A stretch of 64,000 bases of DNA from Halioglobus sp. (GCA_020443345.1 JAGRIH010000021.1:45018-109017); one strand, 5' to 3'. Shown: positions 8,730 through 46,726, numbered from the stretch's first letter. Notes: generated from the sequence alone by a model not told the origin. Numbers and translations: made by a program.

Positions 8730-9400
8730 CTGTCCACGATTCCTCCCCGGACAATGCCAGGCAGTCACGCGGGGTGCGGGTGACCCTGGTCGCCATTGTG
8801 GTTTTTATGCTGCTCGTGGTGGCCGGATTTGTCTACCGCATGCAGCAACCGCGCTCACTGAGCTCCGCCGAAATGAAGGCAAACGGGCTTTATCTTCTGG
8901 AAACACCGCGAAAAATCGGTGATTTTTCACTGGTTGATCATCGCGGCCAGACCTTTGGTCCGCAGCAGTTGCCGGGCCAGTGGACCCTGGTTTTTTTTGG
9001 TTTTACCCACTGTCCGGATATCTGCCCCACCACCATGGCGTTGCTCAATGAATTTGTGTCCGGCCTGCAGGACGCGGAGGCGGCCGATACCAAAGTGGTG
9101 ATGGTGTCGGTGGATCCCGAGCGCGATACGGTGGCGCGGCTGGCCGAGTACGTACCCTACTTCAACCCGGACTTTACCGGCGTGACCGGCGGTTTTCTCG
9201 ACGTTCAGCGCTTTGCCACGGCGCTCAACGCGCCCTTTCGCAAGGCGCCCGGCCAGGGCGAGGACTACCAGGTCGACCACAGCGCGAGCGTGGTACTGAT
9301 CAATCCCCGGGGGGACTACCACGGTTTTTTCCGGGCGCCGCTGGATCAAGCCCGGATGCAGCTCACCTATCGCTCCGCGCGCACGCAGTGGGAACGCTAG
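8726..9400 (+). CDS. SCO-family copper chaperone (SenC/PrrC)
   Basis: N-terminal TM helix, [13 protein letters not shown] CxxxC motif and a conserved downstream H ([10 protein letters not shown]). Confidence 0.9.
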
Positions 9401-12114
9401 TGGGCGGCGCGGCCCCGCCCATCGTCCTGGTCGACGGCTCCTCCTACGTCTACCGGGCCTTTCACGCCCTGCCCCCGCTGACCAATTCGCAGGGTCAGGC
9501 CACCGGCGCGATCAAGGGGGTGATCAGCATGTTGCGCCGCCTGTGCCAGGACTATCCCGACAGCCCGGTCGCGGTGGTGTTCGACGCCAAAGGCAAGACG
9601 TTCCGGGACGAGTTGTACGCCCAGTACAAGGCACACCGCCCCCCCATGCCGGACGAGCTGCGCGAGCAGATAGCGCCCATCCACGCCATCGTGAAGGCAA
9701 TGGGTTTGCCGTTTATCTGTGAGCCCGGGGTGGAGGCCGATGACGTGATCGGCACCCTGGCGCACCAGGCCAGCGAACAGGGCCGGCAGGTGGTGATCTC
9801 CACCGGCGACAAGGACATGGCGCAGCTGGTAAATGATCACACCTTGCTGGTCAATACCATGACCGATACGGTGCTCGATGCCGCAGGGGTCGAGCAAAAA
9901 TTCGGCGTCGGCCCCAACCTCATTATCGACTTGCTGGCGCTGGTGGGCGACAAGTCGGACAACATTCCGGGCGTTCCCGGTATCGGCGAAAAGACGGCGC
10001 TGGCGCTGCTGCGCGGGCTCGGTGGGCTCGATGACATCTACGCGGCGCTGGACAAGGTGGCCGGGCTGTCTTTTCGCGGCGCCAAAACCATGGCGCAAAA
10101 ACTGGCGGCGCAGCGCGACAACGCCTACCTCTCCTACGCGCTGGCCACGATCAAGACGGACGTGACGCTGGAGCTGAGCCCGGGGCAATTGCGCAACGGC
10201 GTGCCCGAGCGCGAGGTCTTGCGCGACTGGTATACCCGGCTGGAGTTCAGGTCCTGGCTGGAAGAGCTGCTGGAATACAGCGATGCCGCGCCGGGCGAGA
10301 GCCCGGCGCTGGACTGTGACACGGTGACCGACCAGGCGGGCCTGGACACCTGGCTGCAGCGCCTGCGCAGTGCTGAGCTGTTTGCTTTTGACACGGAGAC
10401 CACCAGCCTGGACTACATGGAGGCGCAGATCGTGGGCGTGTCGTTTGCCGTGGAGCCGGGCAGCGCGGCCTATGTCCCGCTGGCGCACGACTATCCGGGG
10501 GCGCCGCCGCAACTGGAGCGCGAGGCAGTGCTGGAGCAGTTGCGTCCGCTGCTGGAGGACGAGCGGCGCGCCAAGGTGGGCCAGAATCTCAAATACGACG
10601 CCAGTGTGCTGGCCAACCACGGTATCGCGCTGCGCGGCATCCGTTTCGATACGATGCTCGAGTCCTACGTACTGGACGCCACCGCCACCCGGCACGACAT
10701 GGACAGCCTGGCGCTGAAATACCTGGGCCAGAAGACCATCCACTTCGAGGAGATCGCCGGCAAGGGCGCCAGGCAGCTGCGTTTCAATCAGATTGCCCTG
10801 GAGCAGGCCGGTCCCTACGCGGCCGAAGATGCGGATGTCACGCTGCGCCTGCACCATGCATTGTGGCCGCGACTGGAGCGAGAGCAGTCGCTGGCGGCGC
10901 TGTTCAAAGACATCGAGATGCCGCTGGTGGGCGTGCTGTCGCGCATCGAGCGGCGCGGGGCGCTGTTGTCCCGCGAGCTGTTGCGCGCGCACAGCGCACA
11001 GTTGGGCGAGCGACTGCAGGAGCTGCAGAGCCGCGCCTACGAGCTGGCCGGGCAGGAGTTCAACCTGGGGTCCCCCAGGCAGTTGGGGGAGATATTGTTT
11101 GAGCAACAGAAGCTGCCGGTTATCAGAAAAACTCCCAAGGGCGCGCCCTCGACCGCCGAGGAGGTGCTGGCCGAACTCGCGCTGGACTACCCGCTGCCCC
11201 ATCTGCTGCTGGAATACCGCAGTTTGAGCAAACTCAAGTCGACCTATACCGATAAGCTGCCGGAGATGATCAACCCGCGCACCGGTCGCGTGCACACGTC
11301 GTACCATCAGGCGGTGACGGCCACCGGCCGGCTCTCTTCCTCGGACCCGAACCTGCAGAACATCCCGGTGCGCACCGAGGAGGGCAGGCGCATTCGCCAG
11401 GCCTTTATCGCCCCCGTCGGCTACCGTATTCTGGCCGCGGATTATTCACAGATCGAGCTGCGCATCATGGCCCACCTGTCGGGTGACGAAGGCCTGCTGC
11501 GCGCGTTCCGCGAGGGACAGGACGTGCACCGGGCCACGGCCGCCGAGGTCTTCGAGGTCGATCTGGACGCGGTGTCGGGCGAGCAGCGACGCAAGGCCAA
11601 AGCGATCAATTTCGGCCTGATCTACGGCATGTCGGCCTTCGGCCTGGCGCGGCAACTGCATCTGGGCCGCAGCGAGGCGCAGGACTATATCGACCGCTAT
11701 TTCCAGCGCTATCCCGGCGTGCAGCAGTACATGGACAGGACGCGGGCGCTGGCGCGGGAGCAGGGCTATGTCGAGACCCTGTTTGGCCGCCGCCTGTACC
11801 TGCCGGAAATCAATGCCCGCAACAGGATGCGGGTGCAGGCGGCGGAGCGCACCGCCATCAATGCGCCGATGCAGGGCACCGCGGCGGATATCATCAAGCG
11901 GGCCATGGTCGCCGTGGACGGCTGGCTGCAGCAGCAGACGGCGGACGCGTGCATGATCATGCAGGTGCACGATGAACTGGTACTCGAGGTGGCGACGGAG
12001 CAGGTCGCGGCTGTCGGCGAGCGGGTGCGCAGCCTGATGGCCGGCGCCGCGGAACTGGCGGTGCCGCTGTTGGTCGACGTCGGTGTCGGCGCTAACTGGG
12101 ACGAGGCGCATTGA
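9388..12114 (+). CDS. polA: DNA polymerase I
   Basis: 908 aa. 5'-3' exonuclease N-terminus ([14 protein letters not shown]), 3'-5' exonuclease ([11 protein letters not shown]) and polymerase motifs ([27 protein letters not shown]). Start is GTG 9388 or GTG 9400. Confidence 0.98.
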
Positions 12115-12160
12115 GCGGCCGACCGCTAGGGGGGTTGCTGGGCAGAGCGTTGCTACAGTG

Positions 12161-12352
12161 GATCGGTCGGCGTCCAGTGGGGTAGCAGTGCACGGCCACA
12201 GGCTTGCCAACCGGTTCAGGCGGCTGCGGAACTCGACCAATTTTGCTGCGCAAAATTCGGGACTCGAACAGTCCTCGCCGAAAGCCCCTGAACCGGTTGG
12301 CAAGCCTGAACGTGGCCTATAGCACTGCTACCCCACTGGACGCCGACCGATC
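12161..12352. repeat. 192-bp nested palindromic element
   Basis: Outer arms 12161-12191 and 12322-12352 are perfect 31-nt reverse complements. Inner arms 12201-12220 and 12287-12306 are perfect 20-nt reverse complements. An extra GGCCAC/GTGGCC pair lies between them. Confidence 0.9.
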
Positions 12353-12387
12353 CGGGCCGGGCTCGACAAAAAAATTGTCGAGATTTT

Positions 12388-12414
12388 GAACTTTCCCACT
12401 GACCCCCAGTCTCA
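12388..12414 (+). promoter_or_regulatory. RpoE/AlgU (sigma-E family)-type promoter
   Basis: GAACTT (12388-12393), a 16-nt spacer, then TCTCA (12410-12414). This matches the consensus GAACTT-N16/17-TCnnA. Confidence 0.5.
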
Positions 12415-12419
12415 TTATA

Positions 12420-12538
12420 CGTAGCGAGCGCTACATCCCTGGGTGGCCTTTCTCCATGGGCCACCAGAGCAGTCTCTAATCCCCAGAGACTCTAGCTGGC
12501 CCGGTTGCTTTTCCCCTAGAGGCAACCGGGCTTTTTTA
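12420..12538 (+). ncRNA. candidate sRNA at the Spot 42 / ErsA syntenic position
   Basis: Lies in the polA-engB gap in the polA orientation. Four hairpins: 12421-12434, 12442-12465, 12471-12491 and a terminator stem 12499-12531 followed by TTTTTT. Starts about 7 nt after the sigma-E-type -10. Confidence 0.55.
12499..12537 (+). terminator. Rho-independent terminator
   Basis: GCCCGGTTGC...GCAACCGGGC 10-bp GC-rich stem followed by T6. The U-tract is present only on the + strand. Confidence 0.8.
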
Positions 12539-12541
12539 TTC

Positions 12542-13201
12542 TCAACCCTGTACGGCTTTATCGACACAGACGCTGGCGTCCGTCAACCACGCGTTGAGCA
12601 CCCCGGTCAATTCCCTCTGGCCGCTGTGTTTGAGCGCGGAAAACAGTTGTACGCTCACCAGTTCCCCATGGGTTTCGAGCGCGGAGGCCACCTGCAGCAA
12701 CGCGGCGGCGGCCTGGCCTCTGCTGAGTTTATCCGCCTTGGTCAGCAGAAGATGCACCGGCATGGTCGCATGCAGCGCCCAGTTCAGCATCTGCTGATCG
12801 AAGGGCTGCAGCGGGTGGCGCGCATCCATGACCAGGACCAGCCCGCGCAGGCTCTCGCGCCTTCGCAGGTAATTTTCCAGTTGCCTGGTCCATTCCCGTT
12901 TGACCGCCAGGGGTACTTGGGCAAAACCGTAGCCCGGCAGGTCCACCAGCCGCTGGTTGGCGCCGAGGCTGAAAAAGTTCAAAAGTTGTGTCCGGCCGGG
13001 CGTTTTGGATGTCTTTGCAAGCTTCTTGTTCCCTGTTAAGCTGTTGATTGCACTCGATTTTCCGGCATTTGAGCGGCCGGCGAAGGCCACTTCCCAACCG
13101 CTGTCCTGCGGGCACTGCGAGAGTTTACTGGCGCTGACCAGAAATCGTGCACAGCGGTAATTGGGAACTTTGGGATCAGAGCCTTGATCAAAGTCAGTCA
13201 T
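12542..13201 (-). CDS. engB: ribosome biogenesis GTP-binding protein YihA/EngB
   Basis: [12 protein letters not shown] (G1), DLPGYG (G3), TKADK (G4). ORF 12542..13288 trimmed to ATG 13201 (MTDFDQ...). Confidence 0.95.
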
Positions 13202-33036: not shown

Positions 33037-35928
33037 ATGAACCTGACTGTCACTGCATTGCCCGCGGCACTGGCTGAACAGGCACAGATCGCCTGGCGCC
33101 GTATACTGGAACGCGCCACTGAGTCCGTTGCTGGAGAGCTGGCCGCCGCTGTCGCCGCCGATCCGCTGGCGGCGCAACTGCCGCGGGTGCTGGCCTGCAG
33201 CCCCTTTGTCGCCGATCTGGCCCGGCGCAAGCCGGCACTGCTGCTGGCGCTGCTGCGCAGCGGGCAGTTGCACGAAACCCTCGCCGAGAGTGCTTTTGCA
33301 CAGCAGTTGCAGCAGCGCCTGGCGCCCGGGGACGCGGACCTGGCACTGGAGCTGCGCCGCTTTCGCCAGTGGCACATGCTGCGCATCGTGTGGCGCGACT
33401 TCTGCCGCCTGGCCGATACCATGGAAACCGTGCGCGATACCTCGCTGCTGGCGGAGGCCTGTATCGGCGGTGCCCTGCAACACACCCAGGCGGCACTGGA
33501 GCGGCGCTTCGGGCAGCCCCGCGGACGCGACAGCGCCCGGCCGCAGCAGCTGATCGTACTGGCCATGGGCAAGCTGGGCGCGCGCGAACTCAACGTCTCC
33601 TCCGATATCGATCTGATGTTTGCCTTCCCCGAGGCCGGGCACACCGACGGCGAGAAAAAATCGATCAGCAATGAGGAGTTTTTCACCCGCGTGGGGCAGG
33701 GCCTGATCACCGCGCTGGACCAGGTGACGGCGGAGGGCTTTGTGTTCCGCTTGGATATGCGCCTGCGCCCCAACGGCGACAGCGGGGCCCTGGTGCACAA
33801 CTTTACCGCGCTGGAGGCGTATTACCAGGAGCAGGGGCGCGACTGGGAGCGCTACGCGCTGATCAAGGCGCGGCCGATCACCGGCGACCCGGCGCGGGGC
33901 GCCGAGTTGATGGCGTCGCTGCAACCTTTTGTGTACCGCCGCTACGTGGATTTCGGGGTGATTGAAAGCCTGCGCGGCATGAAACAGATGATTACCGCCG
34001 ATGTGCGCCGCCGCGGCTTGCAGGACAACGTCAAACTGGGCAGCGGCGGTATTCGCGAGGTGGAGTTTATCGCCCAGTGCTTCCAGTTGATCCGCGGCGG
34101 GCGCGACCTGGGCCTGCAGCGGCGCGAACTGCTGGCGGTGCTCGATGAATGCCGGGAACTGGGCTGTCTGCCGGCGGATGCCGTGCGCGAATTGCGCGCG
34201 GCCTACCTGTTCCTGCGCGACAGCGAGCACGCCATCCAGGGCTACCAGGACCGGCAGACCCAGCGCCTGCCCGAAGAGTCCGCAGCGCGCCTGGCCCTGG
34301 CCACCGTCATGGGCTACGCCGACTGGCCGGCTTACAGCGAAGCGCTGCAGCAGCACCGGTGCCGGGTGGCGGCGCACTTCGCCGAGCTGATCGCACCGCC
34401 GGAGGACGACGCCGCGCCACAGCCGGAGGACGAGCTGCCGCTGTGGGGGAGCGGTCTGAGCGCCGCGTCGCTGGCCGCCCTGGGCTATCGGCAGGCGGAG
34501 CAGTCCATGCAGGCTCTGCAGGAACTGCGGCAGAGTTCGCGGCTGGTGGCCCTGCAGGCCCAGGGGCGCGAACGGCTGGAGCAATTCATGCCGCAGTTGC
34601 TGCGCGCCTGTGCCGAGGTGGAACAGCCCGACCTGGCGCTGCAGCGGCTGCTGCCCCTGGTGGCGGCCGTCGCGCGCCGCAGTGCCTACCTGGCGCTGTT
34701 GCTGGAAAATCCGCCGGCGCTGCGCGAACTGGTGGTGTTGTGCGAGGCCAGCCCGTGGATTGCAGAGCAGATCACACGGCATCCGGTGCTGCTGGATGAA
34801 TTGCTGGATCGCGCCAGTCTCTATACCGCTCCGGACATAACACTGCTGCGCGACGAGTTGCGCCAGCAGGTGGCGCGCCTGGCCACGGACGACCTGGAGG
34901 CGCAGATGGACGCGCTGCGCTATTTCAAGGCCTCCCAACTGCTGCGCGTGGCCGCCAGCGAGCTGGCCGGGCGCCTGCCGGTGATGCTGGTCAGCGACAA
35001 GCTGACCTGGATCGCCGAGGTCATCCTGGAGCAGGTGCTGGCGGTGGCCTGGGCCGATCTCACCCGCAAGTACGGCGAGCCGCAGCGCGAGGCCGGAGGT
35101 TACGGCTTTGCCGTGTTCGGCTACGGCAAGCTCGGCGGTATCGAGCTGGGCTACGGCTCCGACCTCGATCTGGTCTTCGTCAGCGACGCCGCCCGGCAGG
35201 GTGTGACCAGCGGTGCGCGGGCCATCGATAACGCACTGTTTTATACGCGCCTGGCGCAGCGCATGATCCATATCCTGGAGACCCGCATGGCCATGGGACA
35301 GTTGTACGAGGTGGACATGCGCCTGCGACCCTCGGGGGAGTCCGGCATGCTGGTGACCAGCTTCGAGGGCTTTAGCAGTTACCAGGAGGGATCCGCCTGG
35401 ACCTGGGAGCACCAGGCGCTGGTGCGCGCCCGCTTCGTGGGGGGCGATGCGCAACTGGCGCGGCGCTTCGAGGCGGTGCGCCGCGCTATTCTGTGTCAGC
35501 CGCGCGATGCGGCGCAACTGGCGCGGGAGGTGCTGCAGATGCGCGAGCGCATGCGTGAGCACTTACTACCAAAGCAGGGGCCCGATGCTGCGGAATTTCA
35601 CCTAAAACAGGGTGCCGGAGGTATCGTCGATATTGAATTTATGGTGCAATACGCCGTCTTGGCGTGGTCCCATCGGGTGCCGGAGCTGGCGCGCTGGTCG
35701 GACAACGTGCGCGTTCTGGAGACCCTGGGCAGGGAGGGTTTGATCGGGCAGTCCGAGTGTGAACTGCTGACCCGGGCTTACCTCACCTACCGCTCCGCCG
35801 CCCATCAACTCTCCCTGCAACAGCAGCCGGACGTCGTGCCGGCCGATCGTTTCAGTGAATTGCGGGCCGCTGTGAGCGCCATCTGGCAGCAGTTATTTGC
35901 GCCGTATTCGACAACGACAGAGCACTGA
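33037..35928 (+). CDS. glnE: bifunctional glutamine synthetase adenylyltransferase/adenylyl-removing enzyme
   Basis: 963 aa with two nucleotidyltransferase repeats (GKLGARELNVSSDIDLMF and GKLGGIELGYGSDLDLVF). Confidence 0.97.
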   Translation: MNLTVTALPAALAEQAQIAWRRILERATESVAGELAAAVAADPLAAQLPRVLACSPFVADLARRKPALLLALLRSGQLHETLAESAFAQQLQQRLAPGDADLALELRRFRQWHMLRIVWRDFCRLADTMETVRDTSLLAEACIGGALQHTQAALERRFGQPRGRDSARPQQLIVLAMGKLGARELNVSSDIDLMFAFPEAGHTDGEKKSISNEEFFTRVGQGLITALDQVTAEGFVFRLDMRLRPNGDSGALVHNFTALEAYYQEQGRDWERYALIKARPITGDPARGAELMASLQPFVYRRYVDFGVIESLRGMKQMITADVRRRGLQDNVKLGSGGIREVEFIAQCFQLIRGGRDLGLQRRELLAVLDECRELGCLPADAVRELRAAYLFLRDSEHAIQGYQDRQTQRLPEESAARLALATVMGYADWPAYSEALQQHRCRVAAHFAELIAPPEDDAAPQPEDELPLWGSGLSAASLAALGYRQAEQSMQALQELRQSSRLVALQAQGRERLEQFMPQLLRACAEVEQPDLALQRLLPLVAAVARRSAYLALLLENPPALRELVVLCEASPWIAEQITRHPVLLDELLDRASLYTAPDITLLRDELRQQVARLATDDLEAQMDALRYFKASQLLRVAASELAGRLPVMLVSDKLTWIAEVILEQVLAVAWADLTRKYGEPQREAGGYGFAVFGYGKLGGIELGYGSDLDLVFVSDAARQGVTSGARAIDNALFYTRLAQRMIHILETRMAMGQLYEVDMRLRPSGESGMLVTSFEGFSSYQEGSAWTWEHQALVRARFVGGDAQLARRFEAVRRAILCQPRDAAQLAREVLQMRERMREHLLPKQGPDAAEFHLKQGAGGIVDIEFMVQYAVLAWSHRVPELARWSDNVRVLETLGREGLIGQSECELLTRAYLTYRSAAHQLSLQQQPDVVPADRFSELRAAVSAIWQQLFAPYSTTTEH

Positions 35929-46126: not shown

Positions 46127-46726
46127 ATGTCCGAACTGAACAGCCAGGCGGCTGCCGAGGACCGCCACCATAGGGAACTGCTGGCACGCACCGCCAGGGG
46201 TTCTGTCGAGGCTTTTAACGAACTCTACACCCTGCTCTATACGCCCCTGGTGCGTTTCCTCTACCGCTTTACTCAGTCCAGCGCACTCGCCGAAGAAATT
46301 CTGGACGACACCCTGATGGTGGTCTGGCAAAAGGCCGGCACTTTTCGCGGCGACTCCCGCGCTTTGACCTGGGTGCTGGGCATTGCCGGCCGCAGAGCCT
46401 TGAAATCGGTGCGACAGGAGCGCCATTGTGCCAGTCCGCGAAACTGTCTGTTTCCCGGATCGACCGCTGCGAACGAGTTGTCGCAGTTGGCGACGCGAGA
46501 AGCGCTGGAATGGGCATTGCAACAGCTCAATACAGAACAACGCCTGGCGATTGAAATGGCATACTTTCACGGTTTGAATTGCGAGGAGATTGCATCAGTA
46601 CTGGGCTGTCCGCTCAATACGGCTAAAACACGACTGCACTATGCCCGCCGTCGATTGCGCAAGATATTCGGCAGTGCCGGGGAACCGCTCGACTTCGCTG
46701 ACCTCGACGAGGCAATGGCGCCATGA
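46127..46726 (+). CDS. ECF (group 4) RNA polymerase sigma factor
   Basis: Region 2 (FNELYTLLYTPLVRFLYRFT...AEEILDDTLMVVW) and region 4 HTH (LNTEQRLAIEMAYFHGLNCEEIASVLGCPLNTAKTRLHYARRRL). Confidence 0.9.
   Translation: MSELNSQAAAEDRHHRELLARTARGSVEAFNELYTLLYTPLVRFLYRFTQSSALAEEILDDTLMVVWQKAGTFRGDSRALTWVLGIAGRRALKSVRQERHCASPRNCLFPGSTAANELSQLATREALEWALQQLNTEQRLAIEMAYFHGLNCEEIASVLGCPLNTAKTRLHYARRRLRKIFGSAGEPLDFADLDEAMAP

Follow-up and report, generated by a model that had tools for sequence, protein, structure and literature searches.

A conserved candidate sigma-E-type small RNA gene in the polA-engB gap of Halieaceae appears distantly related to ErsA and sX13

Introduction

ErsA of Pseudomonas aeruginosa (Pseudomon-1/ErsA; RF01719) is a small RNA (sRNA) encoded in the gap between polA and engB, and its transcription depends on AlgU (PMC8395346). 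A CUCCU region just past its first stem-loop (SL1) pairs with the ribosome binding sites (RBSs) of oprD and mlaA, for which Hfq is required, and a CCU-to-GGA change abolished the regulation of mlaA (PMC13613067). The Xanthomonadaceae sRNA sX13 (RF02232), which is always found adjacent to polA and has no engB neighbor, represses mRNAs with G-rich RBS motifs through its CCCC loops independently of Hfq, and the authors of that study raised the explicit question of whether similar sRNAs are encoded at polA in other bacteria (PMC3771888). A third RNA, anti-hemB (ncS04, Burkholderia RNA 7; RF02837), is expressed and binds Hfq (PMC5688073). Our literature search found no paper that names two of ErsA, Pseudomon-1, sX13, and anti-hemB together.

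Sigma-E promoters drive the sRNAs MicA, RybB, and MicL of Escherichia coli and VrrA of Vibrio, which repress the synthesis of envelope proteins. The sequence GAACTT-N16-TCnnA, at such spacing, is the RpoE/AlgU consensus, and rpoE/algU genes are autoregulated from a sigma-E promoter. The Halieaceae (OM60/NOR5 clade) are abundant coastal marine bacteria, and we know of no regulatory RNA described in this family. A preliminary description of a 64-kb stretch of DNA from a Halioglobus genome, here called the window, proposed a sigma-E/AlgU-type sRNA of about 118 nt at the ErsA/Spot 42 position. Here, we show that comparative sequence analysis supports this reading, with sigma-E dependence and expression as its predicted parts, and that the RNA probably belongs to a much wider family anchored at polA and engB.

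Results

Promoter, hairpins, and terminator in the polA-engB gap

The element is flanked on its 5' side by polA, encoding DNA polymerase I (9388-12114, + strand; NCBIfam NF004397, 1204 bits), which has the same orientation, and on its 3' side by the convergent engB (yihA), encoding the YihA/YsxC ribosome-biogenesis GTPase (12542 to about 13150, - strand; TIGR03598, 240 bits). These NCBIfam matches and coordinates bear out the proposed placement in the polA-engB gap and in polA orientation. EngB is 72-81% identical to its counterparts in Halioglobus, Haliea, and Pseudohalioglobus assemblies, which assigns the source genome (assembly G000; 3.68 Mb, 70 contigs) to the Halieaceae. The gap of 427 bp contains a palindrome of ~190 bp (12161-12352) and, separate from it, the sRNA element.

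The palindrome, long and nested, sits between polA and the sRNA promoter and is outside the sRNA finding; it is absent from the corresponding gaps displayed in the 49-sequence alignment described below. Two partial copies with 76-86% identity were found on contigs C22 and C70 of the same genome, which gives it the look of a low-copy palindromic repeat or a MITE-like element. The Rfam match with the best E-value in the gap, MIR1437 (12166-12347; 74.5 bits against a cut-off of 168), is an artifact of this palindrome, unrelated to the sRNA, and was discarded.

The putative promoter consists of a -35 box GAACTT of the sigma-E (RpoE/AlgU, ECF02) type at 12388-12393 (+) and a -10 box (G)TCTCA at 12409-12414 (+; TCTCA, 12410-12414), separated by 16 nt. 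GAACTT-N16-TCNNA occurs once in the 64-kb window when both strands are scanned, against 0.05 occurrences expected from shuffled sequences. Directly 5' of the -35 box lies the A/T-rich tract CTCGACAAAAAAATTGTCGAGATTTT (12362-12387, +), and A/T runs of the AAAAATTTTT type precede GAACT in most of the 49 aligned homologs; the tract looks like an UP element. Its first part (12362-12382) forms a small inverted repeat with an A/T loop, CTCGACAA-AAAAA-TTGTCGAG, followed by ATTTT that abuts the -35 box, and this repeat could be a weak terminator for polA transcripts, an UP-like element, or both.

Transcription is predicted to start at 12420-12421 (+), 6-7 nt past the -10 box, by analogy with ErsA, whose published 5' end, taken from the T7 oligonucleotide in a supplement (PMC5819304), maps 6 nt after TCAGA in Pseudomonas loci. 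With a start at 12420 or 12421 and an end at 12537, the RNA would be ~117-118 nt long. Four hairpins follow on the + strand. SL1 (GUAGC-GAGC-GCUAC; 12421-12434) is a short 5' hairpin in which 96.5% of the aligned cells are paired and three of six pairs show compensatory changes; an AGCGC...GCGCU hairpin occupies its position in the wider polA-engB family. SL2 (12442-12465) has the stem GGUGGCC/GGCCACC and the loop UUUCUCCAUG (12449-12458), which contains an anti-Shine-Dalgarno-like CUCC, and SL3 (12471-12491) has the stem AGUCUCU/AGAGACU and the loop AAUCCCC (12478-12484). The fourth hairpin is an intrinsic terminator (12498-12537) with a GC-rich stem of 10-15 bp (12498-12532), the loop UUUUCCCCUAG, and a tract of six U residues (12532-12537), ending 5 nt short of the stop codon of the convergent engB.

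On recheck, the coordinates previously given for the promoter boxes, the four hairpins, and the T6 tract all proved exact. The predicted fold of the 121-nt stretch returned precisely these four consecutive hairpins, with a free energy of -58.8 kcal/mol and a z-score of -6.0 versus shuffled sequences; the minus strand likewise folds well (z = -4.4), as it would for any set of hairpins. A terminator scan called a 15-bp stem with a T-run on the + strand only, in agreement with the earlier observation that the U-tract is confined to that strand. Exact coordinates, rarity of the motif, the fold z-score of -6.0, and a terminator on the + strand only therefore establish that promoter motif, hairpins, and terminator are real features, well past chance.

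Conservation and covariation in Halieaceae

A blastn search recovered the stretch from 19 of 21 congeners as well as from five other genera. With strict filters, the Rfam sX13 model missed even the copy in the window when applied to 41 relatives; blastn and our own models were used instead. A covariance model built from 49 distinct homologs (R1, the Halieaceae model) detected the element in 74 of 121 high-quality Halieaceae genomes, representing 25 of 37 genera, almost always as a single copy, and homologs lay at the 3' end of engB in every locus checked. GAACT is invariant or nearly so in all 49 homologs. The information content of their alignment is 1.4-2.3 bits per column in GAACT and GTC..A and ~0.1 bits in the 16 spacer columns, while the spacing is constant. 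Since the boxes are conserved, the spacer varies, and the distance is fixed, the region bears the sequence signature of a promoter that selection maintains.

Downstream of the promoter, the stems vary across homologs and the loops stay constant. In a plain MAFFT alignment, 86.7% of the cells pair, versus 32-44% with the partners slid, and both partners have changed in 19 pairs. A model-fitted alignment of 54 sequences, which unlike the MAFFT alignment is biased towards the structure by construction, gave 89.7% pairing cells and compensatory changes in 23 of 32 pairs, and none of 500 shuffles reached either value. All nine pairs of SL2 show compensatory changes and its loop, UCUCCAUG, is conserved; so do nine of the ten terminator pairs, around a conserved CCCCUA loop. 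SL3 (GUCUC-UUCCCC-AGAGAC; GUCUC...(U)CCCCAGAGAC) is near-invariant in the 54 homologs and is therefore uninformative on pairing, yet such invariance speaks for a function that depends on its sequence. Frequent G-U pairs are compatible with the + strand only, agreeing with the promoter and the U-tract. The hairpins, whose conservation and covariation in relatives had been named as a check on the sRNA reading, thus came through it.

A peptide encoded by a + strand open reading frame (ORF) at 12443-13039 was also considered. The ORF runs antisense through engB, and the peptide reading is unsupported because the homolog alignment contains indels of 1, 2, and 4 nt. Judged by its pattern of sequence conservation, the element is a conserved gene for a regulatory RNA and not a chance arrangement.

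Assignment of the promoter to sigma-E

The source genome contains one true rpoE (TIGR02939, 322 bits), with ORFs next downstream at the position expected for rseA/mucA. About 157 nt upstream of this rpoE match stands GGAACTT-N16-TCTTA, and 12 of 14 congeners have the motif at the same place and spacing, with a variable spacer. Because autoregulation of rpoE/algU is established and the motif stands before rpoE, it is reasonable to read this motif as the sigma-E promoter of the organism and the sRNA promoter as one sigma-E target. The proposed classification of GAACTT-N16-TCnnA as an RpoE/AlgU-type promoter thus gains from the conservation of its boxes, from the same motif at rpoE, and from similar RNAs at the same locus in other bacteria.

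It is nevertheless conceivable, albeit unlikely, that the sRNA is real but that a different ECF sigma factor or holoenzyme recognizes its promoter, in which case the signal would not be envelope stress. The source genome carries eight further ECF-sigma-like genes, some of which could share the GAAC -35 box, an AAC -35 core is common to many ECF promoters, and the strict promoter motif is not enriched genome-wide (seven sites versus 6-20 in shuffled genomes). Against this weigh the match to the full RpoE/AlgU consensus including its spacing, the motif preceding rpoE itself in the source genome and 12 of 14 congeners, and the relative ErsA, which has the same promoter type and is AlgU-dependent (PMC8395346). 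A genome-wide scan with a position-weight matrix built from the sRNA promoters recovered no obvious envelope regulon. A sigma-E promoter remains the reading we prefer.

Two further observations concern sigma factors and Hfq in this genome. An ECF-type sigma gene lies inside the window at about 46163-46657 (+), corresponding to 91180-91674 of contig C51; it is not the true rpoE, since its 52.8 bits on the RpoE model fall far under the cut-off. The genome also encodes hfq, with GGGAACTT-N16-TCTCA (contig C14, ~33127-33160, +) 285 nt ahead of its start codon. This site ranked third in the matrix scan (18.9 bits); hfq might hence be under sigma-E control in this organism as well.

Comparison with ErsA, sX13, anti-hemB, and Spot 42

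At gathering thresholds, the 64-kb window yielded no match to any Rfam family, Spot 42 included. For the window sRNA, sX13 was the best Rfam match, collinear over model positions 1-115 of 115, with 35.1 bits (E 5.5e-5) against a cut-off of 50. anti-hemB gave 23.1 bits (E 0.0041 on the window; cut-off 49.5), and with strict filters its model returned no match in the whole source genome. Neither ErsA (cut-off 50) nor Spot 42 (RF00021) matched at E <= 10 within 12050-12650, and the ErsA model found nothing in four Halieaceae genomes, the source genome included; as a positive control, it scored 137.8 bits at the ErsA locus of Pseudomonas paraeruginosa. The scan with ErsA and Spot 42 models, proposed as a check, thus found neither family at its curated cut-off, and no likeness to Spot 42 emerged beyond position, whereas a relationship to ErsA held at a distance. 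An sRNA of the sigma-E type next to polA is a known kind of element; its Halieaceae version is unannotated and under every curated threshold.

The window RNA resembles ErsA in its location in the same gap and orientation, in its promoter type (TGAACTTTCC-N-GTCAGA in 64 Pseudomonas species), in a short 5' hairpin at the very start, followed after SL1 by a CUCC(U) anti-RBS motif, in a penultimate hairpin with a C-rich loop, and in a terminator with a C-rich loop. It differs in that it lacks the single-stranded seed AUGCUCCU...GUGUUUAGUGUUGGCA, which lies between SL1 and SL2 of ErsA and which 64 Pseudomonas species share with ErsA-like RNAs of other families. The place of this long single-stranded seed is taken by the covarying hairpin with the UCUCCAUG loop, and only CUCC is kept, in the loop. 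Because RF01719 gives no match and the GUGUUUAGUGUUGGCA seed is missing, sequence comparison makes the window RNA a distant relative of ErsA and not a strict orthologue; and because the seed is missing, the ErsA targets algC, oprD, amrZ, mlaA, and fleN cannot be transferred to it.

With sX13, the window RNA shares adjacency to polA (PMC3771888) and stable hairpins with C-rich apical loops, CCCC being carried here by AAUCCCC and UUUUCCCCUAG, and CUCC by UUUCUCCAUG. The two RNAs have nearly the same UCCCCA(A)G loop in their penultimate hairpin (loop 2 of sX13), and this loop is common to the wider family. sX13 belongs to another order than Halieaceae, and it has neither the 5' GUAGC hairpin nor, as reported, engB as a neighbor (PMC3771888). 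At the one true sX13 locus examined (L312, genome G198; 103 bits), GAACTT-N16-TCnnA was absent from the 70 nt upstream. Since most family members carry the motif, the Xanthomonadaceae branch may have changed its promoter.

In anti-hemB-type RNAs, the modules come in the same order: one hairpin has a CCUCCCUGA-type loop, the next has CCCCAA in its loop, and the terminator loop is C-rich. The SL2-equivalent loop differs, being CCUCCCUGA there and UCUCCAUG in the window RNA. The SL2 loop corresponds to this CCUCCCUGA loop and to the CUCCU seed of ErsA. Spot 42 (spf) of Enterobacteria shares the position between polA and engB/yihA and the orientation, but it is CRP-cAMP-repressed and not sigma-E-driven and has another architecture (PMC3771888 and general knowledge). 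As for MicA, RybB, MicL, and VrrA, the proposed regulatory logic is alike, whereas sequence, locus, and seed type are unrelated; none of their Rfam models matched at the gathering threshold in the 64-kb window or at E <= 10 in the 601-nt sRNA region.

A wider family at polA and engB

R1 also matched 14 genomes from other families of the order. Ten of these 14 matches adjoin polA and/or engB, and many R1 matches outside Halieaceae carry GAACTT-N16-TCTnA upstream. Among Pseudomonas ErsA loci, of which 65 were collected with a 28-nt terminator pattern, R1 produced a single weak match (15.6 bits); a 16-nt ErsA oligonucleotide used as an exact pattern was discarded, having given chance matches only. 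Direct similarity between R1 and ErsA being marginal, the link between them rests on intermediates and on a second model, R2.

Such intermediates occur in other families of the order, where three loci (L112, L121, and L122) scored 34-40 bits with the ErsA model and 24-37 bits with R1, and two further loci (L108 and L111) were matched by both R1 and the sX13 model. Outside Pseudomonadaceae, the ErsA model gave sub-threshold matches in six more families, mostly at the polA-engB locus and with a sigma-E-type promoter. In these ErsA-like RNAs, the seed CUACUCCUUAUGUGUUUAGUGUUGGCA is followed by a hairpin with CCCCCAAG in its loop and by a terminator whose loop is C-rich. One of the intermediate loci (L122, genome G035) contains three tandem copies of an ErsA-like sRNA beside engB, at 974-1102, 1258-1387, and 1501-1631, each with its own GAACTT-N16-TCTCA/TCTGA promoter and terminator. 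The anti-hemB model, for its part, matched in 75 of 151 genomes sampled from the class; among its best 30 matches, from 30 families, 25 adjoin polA or engB and 20 have GAAC..-N16-TC..A upstream.

R2 was built from 25 polA/engB-adjacent RNAs, one per family, with no Halieaceae among them and with Pseudomonas ErsA and Xanthomonadaceae sX13 not deliberately included. In the window, it matched 12418-12539 with 47.3 bits (E 1.7e-11), the sole other match scoring 10 bits (E 0.43). It gave 37.0 bits with a true sX13, 22-27 bits with three Pseudomonas ErsA genes, and 30-32 bits with other Halieaceae copies. The window RNA shows the module order of the family, namely sigma-E promoter, 5' hairpin, CUCC-loop hairpin, CCCC-loop hairpin, and C-rich-loop terminator. 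Since R2 matches the window RNA, a true sX13, and Pseudomonas ErsA, the window RNA is, by these sequence models, a divergent member of a wide family that includes sX13-, anti-hemB-, and ErsA-type RNAs. At the EngB loci of SAR92, Thiotrichaceae, Beggiatoa-like, and other named gammaproteobacteria, we found no Rfam match and no promoter-plus-terminator pattern, and the family is therefore widespread but not universal.

Discussion

We consider it quite probable that the element is a gene for a trans-acting sRNA of ~117 nt that is sigma-E-driven, represses translation by pairing of its loops with RBSs, and forms an arm of the envelope-stress regulon; sigma-E control, transcript start, mechanism, and targets are the predicted parts of this proposal, and the mechanism is modeled on the described relatives. 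Envelope stress would free RpoE (sigma-E/AlgU) from its anti-sigma factor, and RpoE would recognize GAACTT-N16-TCTCA and direct transcription of the RNA (12420/21-12537, +), which would stop at its own intrinsic terminator just ahead of the convergent engB. Folded into four hairpins, the RNA would display the C-rich, anti-Shine-Dalgarno-like sequences UCUCC, UCCCC, and CCCCU in three apical loops. Pairing of these loops with G-rich RBS regions (GGAGA/GGGGA) would then reduce translation and stability of the target mRNAs, which would make the RNA the post-transcriptional repressing arm of the envelope-stress regulon. The conserved, anti-Shine-Dalgarno-like nature of the loops makes RBS occlusion on several mRNAs the most likely mode of action. 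The U-tailed terminator may aid Hfq binding; dependence on Hfq varies among the relatives, being needed by ErsA, bound by ncS04, and dispensable for sX13.

A mainly cis-acting or decoy role, in which the RNA would be antisense to read-through engB transcripts or would titrate a protein or the ribosome, seems quite improbable to us. The terminator does end next to the engB stop codon and the minus strand has no U-tract after the hairpin, so that engB transcripts may run into the sRNA gene, and linkage to engB and polA is retained in at least 25 families. Conserved linkage, however, can be a mere legacy of old gene order; conservation is best in the anti-Shine-Dalgarno-like apical loops and not along the whole length, and the mRNAs on which sX13 and ErsA act in trans are unlinked. 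That there is no independent RNA gene at all, the hairpins being polA and engB terminators or DNA-level elements and the promoter motif fortuitous, is highly improbable. The minus strand does fold well too, but all 49 homologs keep the motif although the spacer drifts, the non-terminator helix SL2 shows compensatory changes in every pair, the G-U pairs are strand-specific, the loops are more conserved than the stems, and independent covariance models converge on this exact spot.

For the trans-acting sRNA that we favor, we scanned duplex energies between the loops and the translation initiation regions of ~2,900 crudely called genes. The RBS of a type IV pilin gene ranked first, and PilQ and a GspE-type ATPase were within the top 24. 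The pilA RBS in question (AUGGGGAUUAGAGA; L339, contig C31 of the source genome) is complementary to 11-13 nt of SL3 (UCUCUAAUCCCCAG). The pilA genes of 13 congeners have the conserved RBS sequence AUGGGGAUAGCA, which retains only GGGGA-level, that is, Shine-Dalgarno-level, pairing. Because complementarity in the congeners is of this level, no specific target is supported; we do not claim pilA as one, the extended pairing not being kept, and treat it as a lead only.

Beyond Halieaceae, we lean towards the view that ErsA, sX13, anti-hemB/ncS04 of Burkholderia, and the Halieaceae RNA represent one ancient family anchored at polA-engB across the GTDB Gammaproteobacteria (Burkholderiales included), mostly sigma-E-driven, with C-rich loops serving as anti-Shine-Dalgarno seeds. 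This view draws on sub-threshold similarities, synteny, and the shared promoter, and C-rich loops and GC-rich terminators could inflate the scores. Composition alone can hardly explain that the whole-genome best matches of three independent models fall in one ~300-bp intergenic slot in dozens of families.

The window RNA helps to connect three RNA families with separate first descriptions and separate Rfam entries. Dozens of gammaproteobacterial families show the same three traits, a sigma-E promoter, anchoring at polA-engB, and an architecture of C-rich loops, which suggests that a single old regulator had its seed remodeled lineage by lineage, single-stranded in ErsA and presented by a hairpin here. 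If this is true, the polA-engB family would be the most widely conserved sRNA of the sigma-E regulon known, the three Rfam models could join in one clan, and what is known of how sX13 and ErsA act could inform research on many bacteria that are still unstudied. For the Halieaceae, the element provides a concrete candidate for an envelope-stress riboregulator.
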